The notes under the pieces were generated by a model. The model was not told where the DNA came from. It saw nothing but the letters and a program-made list of their open reading frames with translations, and did no database searches. This document shows, in pieces, positions 1-6,797 of a DNA stretch of 6,797 bases. Source of the DNA: a virus (Duplodnaviria > Heunggongvirae > Uroviricota > Caudoviricetes); the IMG/VR virus record IMGVR_UViG_2690316105_000023, positions 1 to 6,797 of that record. One strand, written 5' to 3'. Position 1 is the stretch's first letter; each line of letters begins with the position of its first letter. Position numbers and translations under genes: made by a program.

Positions 1-315
1 TCATGATTCCACCTCTCCGGTTTTAACGTTGATGGTTGTTACCTGTTCCGCTTCGGCAATCTCCCGTTCTGTCAGCGTGGCAAAGTTTGCAGCTGCCGTT
101 GTCATGAATGCGCTTATCAGTTCGGGATTCTCCTTCGCGTATCCTTCCCGTGTGTGGCGGTCTATAACTTTGATTGCCACCTTTAGGGAAAGCTCTGTCA
201 TGTCTAACGCTTTATATTTTTGCTGTGTTCTGTCTCTGCGCATTTTGGTCATTTGTCGCCCCTGATTCATGTTTTCGGTCGGCATGTTTGTTAAGTGATT
301 TTGATGTATGCACAT
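1..315 (-). CDS. Hypothetical protein, 5' portion only (runs off the left edge)
   Basis: Open frame with two candidate starts: ATG 315 (GGGGG SD, 9-nt spacer) or ATG 252 (AGGGG SD, 6-nt spacer; MTKMRRDRTQQKYKALDMTELSLKVAIKVIDRH...). No stop within the window. Function unknown. Confidence 0.5.
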   Translation of the reverse strand: MCIHQNHLTNMPTENMNQGRQMTKMRRDRTQQKYKALDMTELSLKVAIKVIDRHTREGYAKENPELISAFMTTAAANFATLTEREIAEAEQVTTINVKTGEVES

Positions 316-361
316 TTATTTTTACCCCCTCGTTTAAAAAGTTTTAGGTTGTGGTGCACCT

Positions 362-587
362 CCTCTACCTCTCTACCTAATCATCTTTCAGGTCAGTAAT
401 GGCGCGGCTTTCAGATGGGTAGAGGGCTTTCGTGGCCCTCTACCCATCATCTACCCGCCCCTCACAAACAACCTTAATCATGGTGGAGGGGGTAGAGGGC
501 TTTTATTTGCCTTCTACCTGCCCCTCTACCCACTTATCATATTGAATAATTTATATTTATTTTCTTTAGGTAGAAGAGGTAGAGGGC
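362..587. repeat. Iteron cluster, putative origin of replication
   Basis: At least nine copies of the 7-bp core CTCTACC / GGTAGAG in both orientations: 363-369, 371-377, 418-424, 438-444, 450-455 (partial), 492-498, 512-518 (variant), 524-530, 569-575 (variant), 578-584. Includes the inverted pair GGTAGAGGGC-N7-GCCCTCTACC (418-444) and an AT-rich stretch at 532-567. Starts right after the primase stop. Confidence 0.7.
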
Positions 588-599
588 TTTTGTCTAAAA

Positions 600-2354
600 T
601 TATAAAAACGCGTCGCAATCCTCTGTTGTTGTCACATTGGTTTGCGTAAGTCCTTTAACCCTGCGCGTTATATATTCACATCCGTAAACTTTTGCCGCTG
701 GCTTCATGGCCTTGCTGAAATCAGCCACGTTTAGCGGCTTGCTTCTTCCTGCGTATGCCATAAACGCCAGATAGACGCGGTAAAGGCTGTTTCTGGTCGT
801 GTACTTCACTGAATCGCCACCGCCACCCATCATCAGGCCGCGCGCTTCCTCCAGAAAATTCAGGAACTGGCAAAACTCAATAACCGGATCCGTCTGTTGC
901 TTTATTGCCAGTGCTTCATCACCGTCACGCTGTTCCAGTAGTAAAGCCCGTGCCTTCTCAGGGTCGGCAAAGTTCGCCAGTAATCGGCGGATAATCACAG
1001 GGATTTCAGCCGCGACCTTCTCCGGCAAATCCTTGTCCTTTTCTGCCTCGCTAACGATATTGTCAAAGCGAAAAATAACCCGACGACGTGCCACGCCTCC
1101 GGCCCGTTCGGTGAATATCATCGGGTTGTTGTTGGTCGTCAGCACCACCGCCCTGATTACCGCCGTGAAACGCTTTTCATATTTCGGGTTAATTTCCACG
1201 GGGTCGCCGCCCGTGATTTTCTTGATGCCCGTTCCTTCGCCTGTATATTTCGGCTGGTCTGCCAGGACGATAAGACGACTCCCGACAACCTGCGCACGTC
1301 CACCAGCATCATCAAGCGATGTCATTTCAGCGCTTACCGTGTTCTGTTTCCCTGCCAGAAGGCTGGCTATGTGCGTGAATGTACTTTTACCGCTTCCGCC
1401 GTCTCCGGTGGCCTCAATAAACATCTGCCAGTCGTACCGGTTCGCCATAATCATGTACAGCGCGGCACATATACGCATCATCTTGCGCGGGTCTTTTCCG
1501 GCTGCGTGCTCAAGCCATTTATGAAAATTTGGCGCGTTATCGCGGATGTTCTCCCCTGGTGCTGGTGGCGTGTACTCAATACCGTTGTGCGTGGTGATCC
1601 AGTTCTCCGGCGTGTGCGGGGAAAATTCCCCCGTTTTCAGGTCAAGCGCACCATTGGCGAACGGCAACAAATCGCCGGACGGCTCGCCCATTGGTTCGGC
1701 AATAACTTTTAACGCTTCCACGGCGTTATTGATTACGCGCTTGCTGAAAGTGGCCCTGTGCTCTGAATAGATCGCCACCATTTCGCGGCTAAGTTCCATT
1801 GTGCTGACCGGACACCATACCCCGCCGCGCCATACGTGAACGATTTCACTTTCAGGATGTACGCAAACGCCATCAAAGCGATCGGCAAGCAGCTGCGCGC
1901 GCTCACTGTCCGCCATCTGCGAAAGTTGCGCCTTTTGCTTTACCGGAAGCTCAATGACCAGACCATCAGAAAGATTCTGGCGCTCACGGGCCAGATATTC
2001 GCGCCAGTTCTCCACCTTCTGACCGTGCATACCATCAGGGTAAAAATTTGCATCCTGTACGCCTGCCGCCGCCAGCTTCTGGCCAATCGCCTTTATCATT
2101 ACTGGCGCAAGATATCCGGCCCTGAATATGCGCACGGATTTTCTGCCTTCCGGCACAATTTGCAGCTTATCCAGTTCTGATAACTGCTGCTCCCCAAGCC
2201 ACACAGGAGGCTCATTATCTCCGGCCATACGCGCATCATGTTCCTGCCATTGTTTCGCGTGTGCCCAGGCATCACTACCCGCAAAAATAATGACTTCTGT
2301 TCCTTTGTGTTTTATGCCGCGTGACTGCTGTTTTACGTTCGGTGCCAGTTTCAT
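600..2354 (-). CDS. Primase/helicase-type replication initiator (P4 alpha-like / PICI Pri-Rep-like, SF3 P-loop NTPase)
   Basis: 584-aa ORF with AGGGG SD 6 nt upstream of the ATG. Walker A motif GDGGSGKST and Walker B-like RLIVLADQ are present; the gene sits directly upstream of an iteron cluster. Confidence 0.9.
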   Translation of the reverse strand: MKLAPNVKQQSRGIKHKGTEVIIFAGSDAWAHAKQWQEHDARMAGDNEPPVWLGEQQLSELDKLQIVPEGRKSVRIFRAGYLAPVMIKAIGQKLAAAGVQDANFYPDGMHGQKVENWREYLARERQNLSDGLVIELPVKQKAQLSQMADSERAQLLADRFDGVCVHPESEIVHVWRGGVWCPVSTMELSREMVAIYSEHRATFSKRVINNAVEALKVIAEPMGEPSGDLLPFANGALDLKTGEFSPHTPENWITTHNGIEYTPPAPGENIRDNAPNFHKWLEHAAGKDPRKMMRICAALYMIMANRYDWQMFIEATGDGGSGKSTFTHIASLLAGKQNTVSAEMTSLDDAGGRAQVVGSRLIVLADQPKYTGEGTGIKKITGGDPVEINPKYEKRFTAVIRAVVLTTNNNPMIFTERAGGVARRRVIFRFDNIVSEAEKDKDLPEKVAAEIPVIIRRLLANFADPEKARALLLEQRDGDEALAIKQQTDPVIEFCQFLNFLEEARGLMMGGGGDSVKYTTRNSLYRVYLAFMAYAGRSKPLNVADFSKAMKPAAKVYGCEYITRRVKGLTQTNVTTTEDCDAFL

Positions 2355-2650
2355 TTTTTACCCCTGAATCCGTTAATCATGGTTTTCAGCTTCTGGATGT
2401 TTGCCCGTGCCCTGGCGTTGCTGGTGGGCACGTTATGCGGCGCGGTCTGTACCAGAGAAAAATCACGCCGGAACTGATAAACAGGCATCACGCAATCATA
2501 TTCGTAACCTTCACGGCGGTAGGTTACGCGCCGTTCTTCCACGCCCTTAATCATTACCGTGCCGCCGTACTGGTCGCGGTAAATATCACCGCGCGTAAAT
2601 TTAGGGTGAGTGTTGCCACTGGCAGTTAAGCCAGAATATTTAAGTTTCAT
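2351..2650 (-). CDS. Hypothetical protein, 99 aa, translationally coupled to the primase gene
   Basis: GGAG upstream of ATG 2650; its TGA stop overlaps the primase ATG (ATGA). No family recognised. Confidence 0.7.
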   Translation of the reverse strand: MKLKYSGLTASGNTHPKFTRGDIYRDQYGGTVMIKGVEERRVTYRREGYEYDCVMPVYQFRRDFSLVQTAPHNVPTSNARARANIQKLKTMINGFRGKK

Positions 2651-2655
2651 TATTT

Positions 2656-2889
2656 TTATTCTCCGGTGTGCTGTTCTTTATATCTGTCGTGCAATAGATC
2701 TATTTCTTGCAGTTCCATTATTACAGGCTCAAGAAGCGTTATTAATGCCGTGGCAATTCTTGATTTTTGTTTGTCGCGTTCATTGTCGCCAAGTGTTTCA
2801 AGCCATATGCGCAATATTTCCAGCATGTTTTCACTGTGAGAAAGTGCAAGAAATGCGCGGTCTATTGTTTCGAGGTAAATATCACGCAT
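2656..2889 (-). CDS. Hypothetical protein, 77 aa
   Basis: GAGGATG SD about 6 nt upstream of ATG 2889; the gene start overlaps the preceding gene's stop. No family recognised. Confidence 0.65.
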   Translation of the reverse strand: MRDIYLETIDRAFLALSHSENMLEILRIWLETLGDNERDKQKSRIATALITLLEPVIMELQEIDLLHDRYKEQHTGE

Positions 2890-3328
2890 GGCTTACATCC
2901 TCAGGAAATTTTCTTCTGTAACGCGCCTCTGCCACATATTCCGCATAATCGGCGGCGATATTCAGTACATCAAGTCCCGTTGATTTATATTCTTTCGTGG
3001 AAAGTAAGAAAAAAGCCGCTCTAATAAGTTCTGGCATTGACGAAAGCGCATCAGCCGCATCATCAGGAACGCCGGAAAATTCCTGTTTCAGGGAATTAAA
3101 ACGATCATCACGCATAACCCCCCCATTTTCACAATCAGCAACAAGAATATTTTTAGCGTCATTCAGCGACCGCGTAGCGGTGTATCGGATATATTCCAGG
3201 GCTAACGTTGTCCGGTCTTTCTGTTCTTCTCCCTGCGCAAGCTCTGCCGTGCATTCAATATCAATAAGCGCGTGCATCAGCGTAGTGAGTGCGGCTGCTG
3301 CGTTCGGTGTGGTTTTATTCTGCAACAT
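2882..3328 (-). CDS. Hypothetical protein, 148 aa
   Basis: GGAG 7 nt upstream of ATG 3328; stop overlaps the next start (ATGCGTGA). No family recognised by eye. Confidence 0.7.
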   Translation of the reverse strand: MLQNKTTPNAAAALTTLMHALIDIECTAELAQGEEQKDRTTLALEYIRYTATRSLNDAKNILVADCENGGVMRDDRFNSLKQEFSGVPDDAADALSSMPELIRAAFFLLSTKEYKSTGLDVLNIAADYAEYVAEARYRRKFPEDVSHA

Positions 3329-3533
3329 ATCTTAACTCCACTGAACTTACGTATTTACACGGGTTTCCTTTTACCTGTCGCACACGGTAGGAATCGTTTT
3401 TAATCACTTCCGCTATTTGCCCAAACTTTTTTACCGCTGTACGGCGGCTCTTGTAGCGGTAAGTGTTTATCTCCCTTCTGCTCATTACCGCTTCATTGTG
3501 ATATCTGGTTATCACTATCAGCACTTCAAACAT
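3315..3533 (-). CDS. Hypothetical protein (72 aa from ATG 3533; ORF track starts at a TTG at 3563)
   Basis: AGGGGG 6 nt upstream of ATG 3533; product MFEVLIVITRYHNEAVMSRREINTYRYKSRRTAVKKFGQIAEVIKNDSYRVRQVKGNPCKYVSSVELRYVAE. Its 3' end overlaps the next gene start by 14 nt. Confidence 0.6.
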   Translation of the reverse strand: MFEVLIVITRYHNEAVMSRREINTYRYKSRRTAVKKFGQIAEVIKNDSYRVRQVKGNPCKYVSSVELRYVAE

Positions 3534-3696
3534 GACGCACCCCCTGACGAATACGGGCGACAAAAATCAGATGTGCGTGCGGCAACTGGGCGCGGGCTTC
3601 GCGTTCAGTGGCTGCGGTAACGGTGTAAATATCAATGCTGCTGTGGTGGCACTGCATAAAGCGCCAGACAAAGTAAGGGCGTGCGGATACAGCCAT
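3526..3696 (-). CDS. Small protein, paralog A1 (56 aa), unknown function; may instead be the C-terminal part of a longer ORF 3526-3990
   Basis: GGGAG 8 nt upstream of ATG 3696; product MAVSARPYFVWRFMQCHHSSIDIYTVTAATEREARAQLPHAHLIFVARIRQGVRHV, paralogous to A2. The stop overlaps the ATG of the next gene (ATGTTTGA). The same frame stays open upstream to 3990/4032, so a 154/168-aa fusion is an alternative. Confidence 0.5.
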   Translation of the reverse strand: MAVSARPYFVWRFMQCHHSSIDIYTVTAATEREARAQLPHAHLIFVARIRQGVRHV

Positions 3697-3861
3697 GTGA
3701 AAGGCTCCCAATTTAATGTTAAGGAGTCTCACCACTACGCTGCTAAACGGGGTGGCGAGACGTAACAGGGTTAGCAGACTGGCAAATTGGGAAACCAGCG
3801 AGCGCAAAGGCTCCCCCGTTACGCCCCGCCATAATGCGGGTATGGGTAGGTTTACGGACAC

Positions 3862-3985
3862 AAAAAAACCGCTTATCGGATATGGGCGGCTGTCCGCCAA
3901 TTTATTCAGGCTGCTAAACCCGGTCGCCATGTGGGCGACGGGTGAAGCATACAGCCCCGTGATAATTTTTTGCAAGCGGTTTTTA
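3862..3985 (-). ncRNA. Candidate structured RNA element between the two paralogs (speculative; possible immunity/attenuator RNA)
   Basis: On the minus-strand transcript a long-range helix (AAAAACCGCUUG pairing with AAGCGGUUUUU) encloses three local hairpins: GGCUG/CAGCC, a 10-bp ACCCGUCGCC/GGCGACCGGGU stem, and GGCGG-ACAG-CCGCC. It ends in a U7 run. It overlaps an open frame (MSKNRLQK...), so a coding interpretation is not excluded. Confidence 0.2.
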
Positions 3986-4180
3986 CTCATGATGTGACCC
4001 CTGACGAATACGAGCGGCAAATACAGCAACACAACCTGACGGGCAACGGCTACGCGCTTCGCGTTCCGTCCAGGCGGTTACGTGGATGATTTGAGATTCT
4101 CCGGCACTCAGGGCCAGAAAACGCCACACAAAGGCCGTTTGTGTGTGTACAAGGTGTGTTATATGATTTACGGCAACCAT
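3983..4180 (-). CDS. Small protein, paralog A2 (65 aa), unknown function
   Basis: AGGAG 5 nt upstream of ATG 4180; product MVAVNHITHLVHTQTAFVWRFLALSAGESQIIHVTAWTEREARSRCPSGCVAVFAARIRQGSHHE. Shares FVWRF, VTAxTEREAR and ARIRQG with A1, and the nucleotide differences in the conserved core are mostly synonymous in this frame. The stop overlaps a downstream ATG (3988-3990) in an ATGAGTAA arrangement. Confidence 0.55.
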   Translation of the reverse strand: MVAVNHITHLVHTQTAFVWRFLALSAGESQIIHVTAWTEREARSRCPSGCVAVFAARIRQGSHHE

Positions 4181-4209
4181 AACGGCTCCTAGTTTACGTT
4201 GTTGGTTAG

Positions 4210-4253
4210 AAGCCCTGCGAGTGGTAATGACACTTGCGGGGCTTTGCTTTTTT
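4210..4253 (+). terminator. Plus-strand intrinsic-terminator-like hairpin inside the 5' leader of the leftward operon
   Basis: 14-bp stem AAGCCCTGCGAGTG / CACTTGCGGGGCTT (4210-4223 / 4231-4244, two G-U pairs), 7-nt loop, then TGCTTTTTT (4245-4253). On the minus-strand transcript the same sequence is a 5' UTR hairpin preceded by an A-run. Confidence 0.45.
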
Positions 4254-4269
4254 AAGTGCTCTTGTGTTA

Positions 4270-4321
4270 AGGTGACCACCTAACAATAGAAAGGCTAATT
4301 CAATAGGTGACCACTTGTCAA
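4270..4321 (-). promoter_or_regulatory. Candidate leftward operon promoter with two direct-repeat operator-like sites (AGGTGACCAC)
   Basis: Minus strand: perfect -35 TTGACA (plus coords 4316-4321), 18-bp spacer, -10 TAGCCT (4292-4297). Identical 10-mers AGGTGACCAC at 4270-4279 and 4305-4314, each containing the GGTNACC palindrome, lie in the spacer and just downstream of the predicted start site. Confidence 0.4.
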
Positions 4322-4506
4322 CAATCAAACGCGATAAAAGCCCTAAAGGGGACGGGCAATCCCCACAATTCAGAATGCGAATTTCTCCAGAGCTAAAAGA
4401 GCAATTCGATAAAGAAGCACAGAGCGACGGCATAAGCCTAGCCAACTGGCTTAAAGAGTTGGGGCGTACTGAACTAAAGCGGCGCGGTATAGAACCCAAA
4501 GGATAA
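4315..4506 (+). CDS. Putative ribbon-helix-helix (CopG/Arc/MetJ-like) DNA-binding protein
   Basis: Segment RMRISPELKEQFDKEAQSDGISLANWLKELGRTEL fits a beta-strand / helix / helix RHH pattern. Start is uncertain: TTG at 4315 (AGGTGA 4 nt upstream) or ATG at 4375 (no clear SD), giving 63 or 43 aa. Confidence 0.45.
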   Translation: MSTIKRDKSPKGDGQSPQFRMRISPELKEQFDKEAQSDGISLANWLKELGRTELKRRGIEPKG

Positions 4507-4563
4507 AAACTATCAGCGCCGTGGTGTGAGGTATTACGGCGCATTGCTATGCAGGACAACACA

Positions 4564-4737
4564 ATGACCGATAAAGAATTGACCAAAACATTATCACCGG
4601 CACGGAAAAGACGGCGCAGAAAGATAGAGCATGAATCAGAAAGATTCGCGCCATGTGCTTTTGCCCTTGAGCAATTCCTTAAAGAGTACAGGGAAAAGCG
4701 CTCATTGCAGGTATGGCAACGAACTGAACCAGACTGA
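4564..4737 (+). CDS. Hypothetical small basic protein (57 aa from ATG 4564; ORF track starts at 4549)
   Basis: ORF MTDKELTKTLSPARKRRRRKIEHESERF... with AGGA 8 nt upstream of ATG 4564 and a KRRRRK basic patch. No family recognised; kept as low-confidence because it is co-oriented with the RHH ORF and followed by the 4833-4860 terminator. Confidence 0.3.
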   Translation: MTDKELTKTLSPARKRRRRKIEHESERFAPCAFALEQFLKEYREKRSLQVWQRTEPD

Positions 4738-4832
4738 TTGCATTGCCCACCAGCCTGATAGCGGCTATCATCCCCGTGCTTATGTTTGGGATCACACACA
4801 CAAACGGCGCAGCGTGTTATCTGTTCAGAAAG

Positions 4833-4860
4833 GCGGCTCCATTTCGGGGCCGCTTTTTTT
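4833..4860 (+). terminator. Rho-independent terminator ending the short plus-strand unit
   Basis: 8-bp GC-rich stem GCGGCTCC / GGGGCCGC (4833-4840 / 4846-4853, one G-U pair), 5-nt loop ATTTC, then seven T (4854-4860). Confidence 0.65.
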
Positions 4861-5006
4861 ATGCCTGAAAAACCCCAATTTTGTGGTTTTCCAGTCTCAC
4901 CAGGGCGAACGAATCCCCGCCCACGTTCTGGCGTATATTCAATCTTCATGGTTATAGCTCTGTGTTCAGATGATTGATGTGTGGCGGCTGTGTGCCGCCA
5001 GCGTGA

Positions 5007-5195
5007 TTAATGAACTGCCTTGCAGCTATCCTTCCAGGCCAGAACCTCGGATAAAGACCAGCCAACGGAACGACCGCCAAGTTTACGACGTGATGGGAAT
5101 TGTCCGGCCTTTTCCAGGCGGTAGCGGCATGAGCGGCTAAGGCCTGTTAGCTTTTCGCATTCTTTTTCACGTATAAACCGATCAGTGCTTAACAC
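5007..5195 (-). CDS. alpA: AlpA-family phage transcriptional regulator (excisionase-like HTH)
   Basis: 62-aa ORF with the AlpA signature EKLTGLSRSCRYRLEKAGQFPSRRKLGGRSVGWSLSEVLAW. GTG start preceded by a strong SD (AAGGGGG, 5-nt spacer). It sits immediately downstream of int, as in CP4-57-type elements. Confidence 0.85.
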   Translation of the reverse strand: MLSTDRFIREKECEKLTGLSRSCRYRLEKAGQFPSRRKLGGRSVGWSLSEVLAWKDSCKAVH

Positions 5196-5256
5196 TATTG
5201 CCCCCTTTCGTTTCTTAAAGAGTTATTTCGTGTTCTATTGCGTTGGGATGTGTCTG

Positions 5257-5285
5257 ATTGTGTCAGGATGATTCAGAGTTGGCAA
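5257..5285 (-). promoter_or_regulatory. Candidate sigma70 promoter for alpA
   Basis: On the minus strand: -35 TTGCCA (plus coords 5280-5285), 17-bp spacer, -10 CACAAT (5257-5262), about 55 nt upstream of the alpA GTG. Consensus matching by eye only. Confidence 0.3.
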
Positions 5286-5354
5286 ATGTTGAGGTCGTAT
5301 GGTTTACAGAAACAGGAATAATCAGGATAAAATCATTTAAATTCATGTTAATAC

Positions 5355-5386
5355 AAAGGCATAAAATATTGTTTCATGCCTTTTTT
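5355..5386. terminator. Candidate bidirectional intrinsic terminator between int and alpA
   Basis: Perfect 8-bp stem AAAGGCAT / ATGCCTTT (5355-5362 / 5376-5383) with a 13-nt loop, followed by T-run 5381-5386 on the plus strand and by a T-rich TTGTATT on the minus strand. It lies about 200 nt downstream of the int stop on the int strand. Confidence 0.4.
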
Positions 5387-5495
5387 CTCGCTATTTAAAG
5401 AGTGATTCGCTAGTGTATAAAAAACCAGTAACACATTAAAAATCAGCTACTTATAAATCCGTACACTTTTTCGTCTCTTGTTCGTAGTTGTTCCG

Positions 5496-5525
5496 CATTG
5501 TTGCTCATTGTTGCTCATTGTTGCA
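5496..5525. repeat. Tandem 10-bp direct repeat CATTGTTGCT x3 (third copy CATTGTTGCA) in the int 3' region
   Basis: Read directly from the sequence: cattgttgct cattgttgct cattgttgca at 5496-5525, flanked by further TTGTT-rich sequence. Confidence 0.6.
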
Positions 5526-5579
5526 TGTTGTATCTGTTCGCATATCCAGTATGCGCATACTGAAAAAACACGAAAAAAA

Positions 5580-6797
5580 TTATTTTCTTCTGGCTACTGG
5601 TAGCGTGGTTACGTTTTCATGTGTTCCCGCCAGTATCCCTAACCGCTCCATCCACATATCCAGCGCATTGCGTTTAGCATCCAGATAACGGGAATGATTA
5701 TAAACTCGCTGAATTCCTGGCATCTGATGACCTGTAAGCTGCTCCACGACATGCGGATCAACGCCTAAATCGTTCAGCATGGTTGTAAAGGTGCGCCGGA
5801 TGTCATGCAGTGACCAGTGAGGATGATTAAGCCTCCTGTGCGCTAATCTTCCATACTGCGATACGCTGGCCTCCTGTTTCACTTCCCCCAGCAATAAGCC
5901 CGTGTGCCTGTTCTGCTCCACCAGCTGCGTGACGAACGGCAGGATCGCTTCCGGTATGGGCCGGAATATTGCGACCTTCGTTTTGCTGTGCTCCTTCGGA
6001 ACGGTCCATAGCATTTCCGTAAAATCCCACTCCCCGATCTCCGATAGCCTCAGTTCTACCGTCCTGGCTCCGAAGACAATCAGGAGGCGGATTAACGCGA
6101 CGTAGTAAGGGGAAAATATTTTTTTGTCCAGTGCCTGCAATAATTCGCCAAGTTCTTTGTTACTTAAGACACGTTCGCTTATATCCGGTTTTTTCCCAAC
6201 GTCCGCCACGTTCAGATCGTCCAGAACGTTGCTGATTGCATAGCGCCGCCTACGGCAGAACTTAAGCGCCTGTTTGCACGCCTGTAGCACGAATCCGGCA
6301 GTAACAGGCGTTCGCTTTGCCACCTGGTCAAAACAGGCCAGCCAGTGCCGTAGCTCGCATTTATCCAGCGGCATAGCACCAATCTGCTGTATTACGTGAT
6401 TATTAAGTCGCCTTTTCAGGGCGATATAATCCACGCGGTTTTCCTTTACGTAATACTCAAGCCAGTAGGTGAGCGCATCGCCAACCGTTACGGGCTTTAA
6501 CGCTTCCTGTACGGTGTAATTCATCTCATGACGTGGATTTTTCCCCTCAGCCAGCCATGTGCGACACTGTGCGGCTTTTTCCCTGGCTGCTTTCAGGCTC
6601 AGATCAGGATAACTTCCCAGCTTAATGCGTTCGGGTCGTGTCTCCCTTCCCGTTCCGGCCCTGTATGTGAAATACCAGGTCAATTTCCCTGATGTTAAAT
6701 ATTTCACGCTCAGGTTTCCGCCATCACTATAAAACGTGTTTTTCTCCGCTGGCTTACCATGAAGTTTCCTTAGCAAGGTATCGCTCAGTTTGTTCAT
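5580..6797 (-). CDS. int: Tyrosine recombinase / site-specific integrase, P4-type
   Basis: 405-aa ORF. N-terminus MNKLSDTLLRKLHGKPAEKNTFYSDGGNLSVKYLTSGKLTWYFTYR is typical of the P4-integrase arm-binding domain; C-terminus has the catalytic-core signature (HDIRRTF ... HQMPGIQRVYNHSRY). The ATG lies on the last three bases of the window, so the upstream RBS and promoter are not visible. Confidence 0.93.
   Translation of the reverse strand: MNKLSDTLLRKLHGKPAEKNTFYSDGGNLSVKYLTSGKLTWYFTYRAGTGRETRPERIKLGSYPDLSLKAAREKAAQCRTWLAEGKNPRHEMNYTVQEALKPVTVGDALTYWLEYYVKENRVDYIALKRRLNNHVIQQIGAMPLDKCELRHWLACFDQVAKRTPVTAGFVLQACKQALKFCRRRRYAISNVLDDLNVADVGKKPDISERVLSNKELGELLQALDKKIFSPYYVALIRLLIVFGARTVELRLSEIGEWDFTEMLWTVPKEHSKTKVAIFRPIPEAILPFVTQLVEQNRHTGLLLGEVKQEASVSQYGRLAHRRLNHPHWSLHDIRRTFTTMLNDLGVDPHVVEQLTGHQMPGIQRVYNHSRYLDAKRNALDMWMERLGILAGTHENVTTLPVARRK

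Follow-up and report, generated by a model that had tools for sequence, protein, structure and literature searches.

We analysed a stretch of 6,797 nucleotides (nt) of viral DNA, positions 1 to 6,797 of the Caudoviricetes record IMGVR_UViG_2690316105_000023 in IMG/VR, which we call the window, and concentrated on four small genes that lead into a primase gene on its minus strand. The genes are g72 (positions 3315-3533), which encodes a basic protein of 72 amino acids (aa) with an isoelectric point (pI) of 10.0, g148 (2882-3328), whose acidic 148-aa product is predicted to be all-helical with two domains, g77 (2656-2889), which encodes an acidic, helical protein of 77 aa (pI 4.8), and g99 (2351-2650), which encodes 99 aa. 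They are followed by the gene for a 584-aa Pri-Rep primase-helicase with D5_N and DUF5906 domains (600-2354), which is recognised by Pfam, NCBIfam and PHROG. A preliminary description of this DNA, made from the sequence alone, had placed the four open reading frames (ORFs) correctly in coordinates and size, and had put them forward as candidates for the manipulation of a helper phage or for anti-phage activity. We find that the layout of this satellite family and one of the four genes are already known, and that the notion of variable cargo suits g72 and g148 alone.

The four genes and the island that carries them

Each of the four ORFs matches a PHROG family, g72 matching phrog_9805 (E 1.5e-22), g148 phrog_2512 (E 3.8e-64), g77 phrog_2196 (E 1.1e-40) and g99 a family found at E 1.1e-32. 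A Shine-Dalgarno-like motif lies 7-13 nt 5' of every start, and the ratio of non-synonymous to synonymous substitution rates (dN/dS) against diverged orthologues ranges from 0.16 to 0.58 across the genes. Because of these family matches, ribosome-binding sites and substitution ratios we take the four ORFs to be genuine genes and not chance ORFs. For g72 we use the ATG start, which gives 72 aa; an upstream TTG would give 82 aa. The genes had been described as a chain of start/stop overlaps that runs into the primase gene. This holds for three of the junctions, g72/g148 (14 nt), g148/g77 (8 nt) and g99/primase (4 nt, ATGA), but g77 and g99 are separated by a gap of 5 nt (TAA-AAATA-ATG). The chain also begins one gene earlier than described, at an Icd-like leader ORF of 56 aa (3526-3696, minus strand; NCBIfam NF033153, E 5.5e-15), whose stop overlaps the ATG of g72 by 8 nt (ATGTTTGA). 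The leader makes up the C-terminal end of a longer ASH/Eta-like ORF of 168 aa (3526-4032). Promoter-like matches were no commoner than expected by chance.

The surroundings of the chain point to the type of element. The genes for the integrase (int, 5580-6797, identified by Pfam and NCBIfam) and for AlpA, the activator of early genes in phage-inducible chromosomal islands (PICIs) (5007-5195; Pfam Phage_AlpA, E 5e-18), are co-oriented with the primase gene pri on the minus strand, and an origin-like region with iterons lies downstream of pri, which is the arrangement that characterises Gram-negative PICIs. About one in four complete Escherichia coli genomes carries segments that are 90-98% identical to the block. 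Relatives at 90-95% identity include an island resembling the capsid-forming PICIs (cf-PICIs), L001, and islands of the EcCICFT073 type, with a size of about 10-15 kb, attachment sites and a packaging or capsid-redirecting module, while the whole window matched none of the phage genomes in the collection. Since these islands match and no phage genome does, we assign the element, on sequence grounds, to the enterobacterial (Gram-negative) PICIs with int, alpA and pri, and not to the P4-type satellites. The P4-type frame in which the locus had first been seen is thereby lost: close relatives have, downstream of the primase, capsid or packaging genes of the PICI or cf-PICI type in place of the sid, psu and delta of P4. 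L001, the best full-length relative, has the order int, alpA, ash/icd, small genes, primase, single-stranded DNA-binding protein (SSB), PerC, capsid, protease, portal, HNH and terminase, which is the layout of a capsid-forming PICI when compared with bioRxiv 10.1101/2022.09.08.507074. The window itself stops inside int and shortly after pri, so that the packaging end of the island falls outside it. PICIs and P4 have been related only by distant homology of AlpA, Int and the primase (PMC6092414). In EcCICFT073, AlpA switches on the downstream genes (PMC6092414), and helper induction through AlpA together with high-frequency transfer has been shown experimentally for EcCICFT073 and EcCIEDL933 (PMC6092414; bioRxiv 10.1101/2022.09.08.507074).

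RgdR and the replication initiators

The statement that none of the four products could be recognised fails for g99, which we identify from its sequence as RgdR, a member of a published regulator family. It matches the Pfam family PF13973 (DUF4222) with 85.7 bits (cut-off 27) over residues 16-68, and its identity over 99 aa is 80.8% with ECs1581 and 93.9% with C1493, both of which have been tested as regulators of type III secretion and motility. Orthologues have been delimited by more than 77% identity to ECs1581 over 99 aa (PMC3378721), and g99 lies above this value. The name RgdR derives from an RGD motif at residues 20-22, which together with K35 has been reported as important for activity (PMC3378721); g99 reads F18-T19-R20-G21-D22 at this site and keeps K35 and R61. 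The AlphaFold model of g99 has a confident core at residues 20-68, with a predicted local distance difference test (pLDDT) score above 90, consisting of a five-stranded SH3-like barrel that is followed by a C-terminal basic helix. The modelled core resembles a Tudor/KOW-like barrel, and a Foldseek search of the fold against the PDB and viral models returned generic small-barrel matches only. We also observed five tandem DUF4222-like stretches each in two large proteins, P0141 (797 aa) and P0165 (1352 aa), in which the barrel doubles as a repeat module. Scans of viral contigs and phage records with the distant DUF4222 members P0145, P0139 and P0136 gave nothing, and a scan of genome contigs with RgdR gave two loci.

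The analysis of gene neighbourhoods covered about 80 loci in which this primase is found, taken from IMG/VR and from reference islands, and we counted positions where the upstream sequence sufficed. The start of rgdR lies at -296 from the primase ATG (about -284 in shorter variants) in all but one locus, the exception being L054, in which rgdR is split by an insertion. The association extends beyond this primase. In L088 and L091, rgdR overlaps a RepA/AAA_25 helicase gene by 4 nt, and in Sakai Sp7 it precedes a DUF927 replication protein. Lambdoid phages have a DUF4222 ORF of 59 aa that is flanked by a cII-like gene and the initiator gene, and overlaps the initiator start in 80 of 80 IMG/VR loci. 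The lambdoid initiators fall into three sequence clusters, one with the Pfam domain HTH_36 and two with Phg_2220_C, and their representatives in GenBank are named 'replication protein O' or 'primosomal protein I'. As judged from gene order, then, RgdR/DUF4222 stands next to five unrelated initiator families across PICIs and lambdoid phages. This placement directly upstream of the initiator in unrelated families is our reason for assigning RgdR to the replication module, and it suggests a core gene and not a moron.

A related observation concerns the phage PhiR49_2, where a 74-aa ORF without a Pfam match (L172 4183-4407) occupies the DUF4222 slot of other lambdoid phages. It overlaps the gene for replication protein O by 4 nt and looks beta-rich from its sequence, and it may be an analogous small partner.

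The initiators themselves offer a candidate for what RgdR might contact. The three PICI initiators (D5/DUF5906, DUF927 and AAA_25 RepA) share only their N-terminal ~125 aa (window 1980-2354), which are 63-83% identical, and their helicase parts are unrelated. The shared domain always follows rgdR; its sole match is phrog_2850, a family of unknown function, and Pfam and the PDB give none. It may be the partner domain of RgdR. The C-terminal part of the window's primase is 40% identical to P4 alpha over 440 aa (alpha residues 324-762) and the protein scores 108.5 against TIGR01613 (cut-off 108.7), while its N-terminal ~140 aa are unrelated to the primase domain of alpha. These neighbourhoods lead us to infer that the initiator is the most likely partner or target of RgdR, or else the transcription and nucleoid machinery at the origin.

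The published work suggests a different explanation, in which RgdR is primarily an acquired regulator of virulence and host physiology, a 'moron' that benefits the bacterium, and its adjacency to the primase is incidental. Deletion of ecs1581 lowers LEE (locus of enterocyte effacement) expression, type III secretion and adherence, and deletion of the whole island (OI-51) reduces shedding from sheep. When expressed, ECs1581 and C1493 each act as activators of LEE1 and type III secretion and as repressors of motility (Flockhart et al., PMC3378721; see also PMC10877973), and RgdR has been listed among the accessory virulence genes of PICIs (PMC6092414). The distribution of the gene argues against this as its primary role. 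We find rgdR in 1,459 of 5,426 complete E. coli genomes, among them strains that lack LEE, and its presence in every related island, coupled to initiators of five families and also found in lambdoid phages, is the pattern of a core gene. Moreover, the RGD motif marks the E. coli subgroup only and reads PGD in the wider DUF4222 family, and the DNA binding described for RgdR is non-specific (PMC3378721). We therefore regard a primary role in virulence as rather unlikely.

The second gene with a stable position is g77. Its family is found in 72 of 78 related loci, a count that includes close and ~40%-identical variants, among them Sakai ECs1580, and it is always the last gene before rgdR. The g77 product is 88% identical to its CFT073 orthologue and 28% identical to ECs1580, and its dN/dS is 0.16-0.38. 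On this distribution g77 is a near-core gene.

The antisense RNA and the variable slot

Upstream of g72 lies an antisense immunity RNA of the C4/CI type (3748-3836, minus strand), which matches the full length of the Rfam model RF01695 with 74 bits (gathering score 45); the CI RNA of P4 scores 74.9 bits with the same model. The comparison that had been drawn with the position of epsilon in P4 was well chosen, as the C4/CI RNA and an Icd-like ORF lie directly upstream of the four genes in the same order as in P4. Loop a' of the RNA is predicted to pair with an a2 target (3702-3716) over the GGGAG Shine-Dalgarno sequence of the Icd-like leader, with a duplex energy of -15.8 kcal/mol that is equalled by 0.7% of shuffled targets. 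A second predicted duplex, b'-b1, has -13.8 kcal/mol and is equalled by 1.3% of shuffles; its target belongs to an a1/b1 region with an isrK/seqA-like element and a terminator hairpin (3862-3952, minus strand), for which both Rfam matches are below the gathering score. Elements share a conserved C4 scaffold but not the recognition loops, which in the window are unlike those of P4, PhiR49_2 and other islands; such differences would be expected if the loops determined immunity specificity. C4 and isrK matches in Gram-negative PICIs have been described before (PMC10111431).

The Icd-like ORF is present twice. An upstream copy (3983-4279, minus strand), which is 95% identical to Sakai ECs1577, and the leader copy (3526-3696) stand in tandem and are 46% identical to each other. 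Relative to islands of the CFT073/Sp7 type, the a1b1-C4-icdB-g72 segment looks like an inserted second immunity unit, and L001 and L091 have two C4 copies each.

Gene content between this region and g77 had been named as something to compare across islands, and the comparison gives a divided answer. The 5' half of the block varies strongly, with at least 15 architectures among the 78 loci and a cassette region of 224-1,867 nt, but g77 and g99 are nearly invariant. g72 is found in 3 of the 78 related loci and in 13 of 5,426 E. coli genomes, and forms 4 clusters among 5.8 billion proteins. Other islands have unrelated families in the same slot, namely h76/ECs1579, ECs1578, F4, F6 and F7. Where g72 does occur, it keeps close company with immunity genes. 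It stands directly after an ORF of the ASH/C4 region in the window, in L001, L007 and L091 and in phage PhiR49_2, where the g72-like gene is preceded by an ASH-Rha fusion that contains isrK and C4; in HEMP4 a g72 relative lies beside an AntA antirepressor gene. From this distribution g72 appears to be a rare cargo gene and a companion of the immunity module. It is also the exact positional equivalent of P4 epsilon, because P4 has the same 8-nt overlap between the end of its Icd-like ORF and epsilon.

The 148-aa product of the next gene appears from its distribution to be a swappable helical cassette of two domains. The N domain (residues 1-70) matches phrog_5146 and is found in 41 of the 78 loci; the C domain (72-148) matches phrog_24341 and is found in 28. 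An AlphaFold2 model is all-alpha, with an N-terminal hairpin at residues 10-67 and a C-terminal bundle at 89-145, at a pLDDT of 57 that is too low for a structure search. Between the domains lies a poly-G tract (G7, 3118-3124, minus strand), whose length sets the state of the gene, fused (148 aa) or split into two coupled ORFs of ~73 aa. In CFT073 the counterpart of g148 consists of two coupled 73-aa ORFs. The tract was compared at 22 related junctions, where we found G7 in frame six times, G8 nine times, G9 twice, G11 once and interrupted forms four times; homologues of g148 carry GG or GGG at this position. The tract could be a phase-variable site, or could partly reflect sequencing error in some assemblies.

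In P0123, a 90-aa protein from a metagenome contig in ENA, a g72-like sequence is fused with the '...IIADCENGG' terminus of the g148 N domain, a natural chimera which shows that the cassettes recombine. When we asked whether the families g72, h76, g148N, g148C, g77 and ECs1578 might all be paralogues of one helical unit, hhalign found no hidden homology among them.

The free exchange of these cassettes raises the question whether their products matter at all. Some of the small ORFs, above all g72 and g148, might count mainly by being translated, as coupling or leader ORFs that maintain ribosome traffic along the mRNA, counteract Rho-dependent polarity and have functionless products. The tight start/stop overlaps along the entire chain would fit, as would the tolerance of g148 for a split at its poly-G tract, and P4 avoids termination upstream of the same operon by translating Eta over the RNA (PMC10111431). 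However, the dN/dS values of 0.34 for g72 (against L091) and 0.58 for g148 speak for products under constraint, both genes belong to PHROG families conserved across elements (E 1e-22 and 1e-64), and a split g148 keeps both halves as intact, coupled ORFs. We consider functionless products very unlikely.

A further alternative is close to the original proposal, that all four genes are accessory cargo which senses, derepresses or interferes with a helper phage, in the manner of P4 epsilon or of the interference and defence genes of satellites. The slot between the C4/CI immunity region and the primase is that of epsilon in P4, the block differs greatly between islands in its 5' half, relatives of g72 adjoin antirepressor-type genes (ASH, Rha, AntA), and only the presence of a helper turns the operon on (PMC6092414). 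For the 3' half the distribution is the opposite, with g99 in 100% and g77 in 92% of the related loci, and g99 is also found upstream of the initiator in lambdoid phages, which need no helper. Furthermore, the cf-PICI prototype, which has rgdR and a g77 relative, shows no interference with its helper (bioRxiv 10.1101/2022.09.08.507074). Kinship with replication accessory proteins had been named as an outcome that would speak against a helper role, and g99 alone, invariant and coupled to replication initiators, comes close to it.

Sequence searches did not favour a helper function either. Pfam, NCBIfam and PADLOC scans of g72, g148 and g77 found no family, and PHROG gave families of unknown function only, so that the lack of recognisable relatives that had been noted for the whole set stands for these three and falls for g99. 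The PADLOC-DB protein models gave no match for any of the four proteins at E-values up to 1, and searches of PDB sequences with the four proteins and the primase N-domain returned nothing below E 0.4, and none of the four matches a solved structure. The P4 epsilon family PF25738 was matched by no window protein at E-values up to 0.1 (P4 epsilon itself matches it at E 2.9e-50), and an hhalign comparison of g72 with epsilon gave a probability of 1.2%. Homologues of epsilon, orf151 and cnr among the four were rejected by BLAST and phmmer; a match of RgdR to the N-terminus of orf151 at E ~0.03, in a database of six proteins, is non-significant, and Pfam finds no DUF4222 in orf151. Taken together, we think it quite unlikely that all four genes are helper-directed cargo, less likely still than a primary role of RgdR in virulence. 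A helper-manipulating role is a possibility for g72 and g148 only, and for these two it is putative.

The window has several further features outside the chain. Nine copies of the iteron GGTAGAGGG are found in both orientations at 361-586, where 0.78 would be expected by chance. The iteron region lies directly past the primase stop and beside AT-rich stretches, and is probably the island's origin of replication. On the far side of it, an ORF of 104 aa (83 aa from an internal start; window 1-315, minus strand) matches phrog_1231, a family of unknown function, and has its counterpart in related islands in a hypothetical gene just ahead of SSB. A Cys/Ser-rich ORF of 247 aa (4206-4949, minus strand), which the Sakai annotation lists as ECs1576, overlaps an oppositely oriented gene for a 63-aa Arc/HicB/YlcI-like protein (4315-4506, plus strand). 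Because the newer RefSeq annotation keeps the short plus-strand gene, the 247-aa ORF is probably spurious.

The proposed early operon and its relation to known systems

The explanation that we favour, and consider probable though well short of certain, is that the four genes form the body of an early rightward PICI operon, a coupled chain gated by the C4 RNA, with RgdR in the replication module. The operon would have the order int, alpA, YlcI-like gene, Icd-like ORFs, C4 RNA, g72, g148, g77, rgdR, pri and origin. In the quiescent island, a C4 RNA of the P1/P4 type would pair with the ribosome-binding site of the Icd-like leader. With each start within a few bases of the preceding stop, this single blocked site, together with polarity, could silence the whole chain down to and including the primase. 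When a helper phage turns on AlpA, the chain would be transcribed and translated as a unit. We propose that the chain is a mosaic of three parts, in which g72 is part of the immunity module, in the place of P4 epsilon and P1 ant, g148 is a cassette, and g77, RgdR and the N-domain of Pri form a replication module. RgdR, as a small basic protein with a Tudor/KOW-like fold, would work with or on the initiator from a position like that of Cnr in P4, and the published changes in type III secretion, motility and Congo red binding would be side effects or a second role.

There are several observations that weigh against this explanation. Pairing at b2 alone is no better than that of shuffled sequence, and two of the Rfam matches are sub-threshold, c4-a1b1 with 44.4 bits against a gathering score of 46.7 and isrK with 37.6 bits against 50. 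EcCICFT073, Sakai Sp7/EcCIEDL933, L005 and L088 have no C4 RNA at the Rfam threshold, and their chains are equally tight. The published data cast RgdR as a pleiotropic regulator with non-specific DNA binding, and the link to replication comes from gene position, where adjacency to the initiator could reflect linkage inside a recombining module and not function. The confidence of the g148 model is low (pLDDT 57). With regard to the RNA, since islands such as CFT073 and Sakai Sp7 keep the tight packing without C4 at threshold, the C4 gate is ruled out as a universal cause of the coupling, and the RNA gate is an add-on in some islands.

A more far-reaching version of the favoured operon model would generalise both of its halves. 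In this version DUF4222/RgdR is a general partner of unrelated initiators (P4-alpha type, DUF927, RepA helicase and lambda O-like), which acts on the initiator or on the host transcription or nucleoid machinery at the origin. The slot between C4/Icd and g77 would be a diversifying effector slot like that of epsilon and ant, with g72 as a companion of ASH/C4 and g148 as a poly-G phase-variable effector, both acting on the helper or the host. We put this joint proposal forward tentatively, as it is more doubtful than the operon model from which it extends. Increased LEE expression, decreased motility and increased Congo red binding resemble the loss of H-NS function. If RgdR were indeed a general partner of initiators, this hns-like expression phenotype would be explained; the likeness is an analogy and should be taken as a lead and not as a result.

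The label of the locus changes with these findings to a standard PICI early operon, in which one 'unknown' is the published RgdR and which has no demonstrated anti-phage or helper-control function. The search for genes that interact with the helper is narrowed to the variable slot right behind the C4 RNA, that is, to g72, g148 and their alternatives. If the role of RgdR in the core replication module holds, the effects on type III secretion in enterohaemorrhagic E. coli (EHEC) would be a by-product of the replication biology of satellites and phages, and deleting or expressing RgdR should alter the replication of the island. The most useful by-product of this study is, in our view, a hypothesis that can be put to the test, namely that replication initiators have RgdR/DUF4222 as a partner.

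The closest known systems are EcCICFT073 and the island known as EcCIEDL933, CP-933C or Sakai Sp7, which have the same backbone of int, alpA, Icd-like ORF, small coupled genes, rgdR and pri. In EcCICFT073 the primase is 97%, RgdR 94% and g77 88% identical to those of the window; Sakai Sp7 has an RgdR of 81% identity and, in ECs1580, a distant g77 relative. The C4 RNA, the second Icd-like ORF and g72 are found in the window but not in these two islands, whose g72 slot is taken by the h76/ECs1579 and ECs1578 families instead. RgdR of the window agrees with the ECs1581 family in its length of 99 aa, in RGD at 20-22, K35 and R61, and in its place upstream of a PICI primase. A primary, replication-linked role is proposed here and is absent from the published account.

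The left operon of P4 (eta/kil, CI RNA, epsilon, orf151, cnr, alpha) has the same order, with an 8-nt overlap and small genes followed by a primase-helicase. In P4-like elements, cnr lies just upstream of alpha in 90% and a second family of 75 aa is found in 61%, and in P4 itself cnr controls copy number (PMC8628076). These two families parallel rgdR and g77, and we see cnr as a positional analogue of RgdR but not as a homologue; the four proteins share no sequence similarity with epsilon, orf151 and cnr.

The immI region of P1 and P7 (c4, icd, ant) likewise has a C4 RNA with a target over the ribosome-binding site of an icd-like gene. In P1, C4 acts as an antisense RNA over the icd ribosome-binding site, and the downstream genes are translationally coupled to icd. 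The difference lies in what follows, which is the Ant antirepressor in P1/P7 and the genes from g72 through the primase in the window. Finally, the early-right operons of lambdoid phages such as vB_EcoS-733R5 and Klebsiella phage 1 LV-2017 have a DUF4222 ORF that overlaps the initiator start, as rgdR does. Their DUF4222 protein consists of the 59-aa barrel only and lacks the N-terminal segment and the C-terminal helix that RgdR has, and their initiators are unrelated to the primase of the window. Phage PhiR49_2 brings both ends of the chain together, as isrK, C4, the ASH-Rha ORF, the g72-like gene, the 74-aa ORF and O are all coupled in it.

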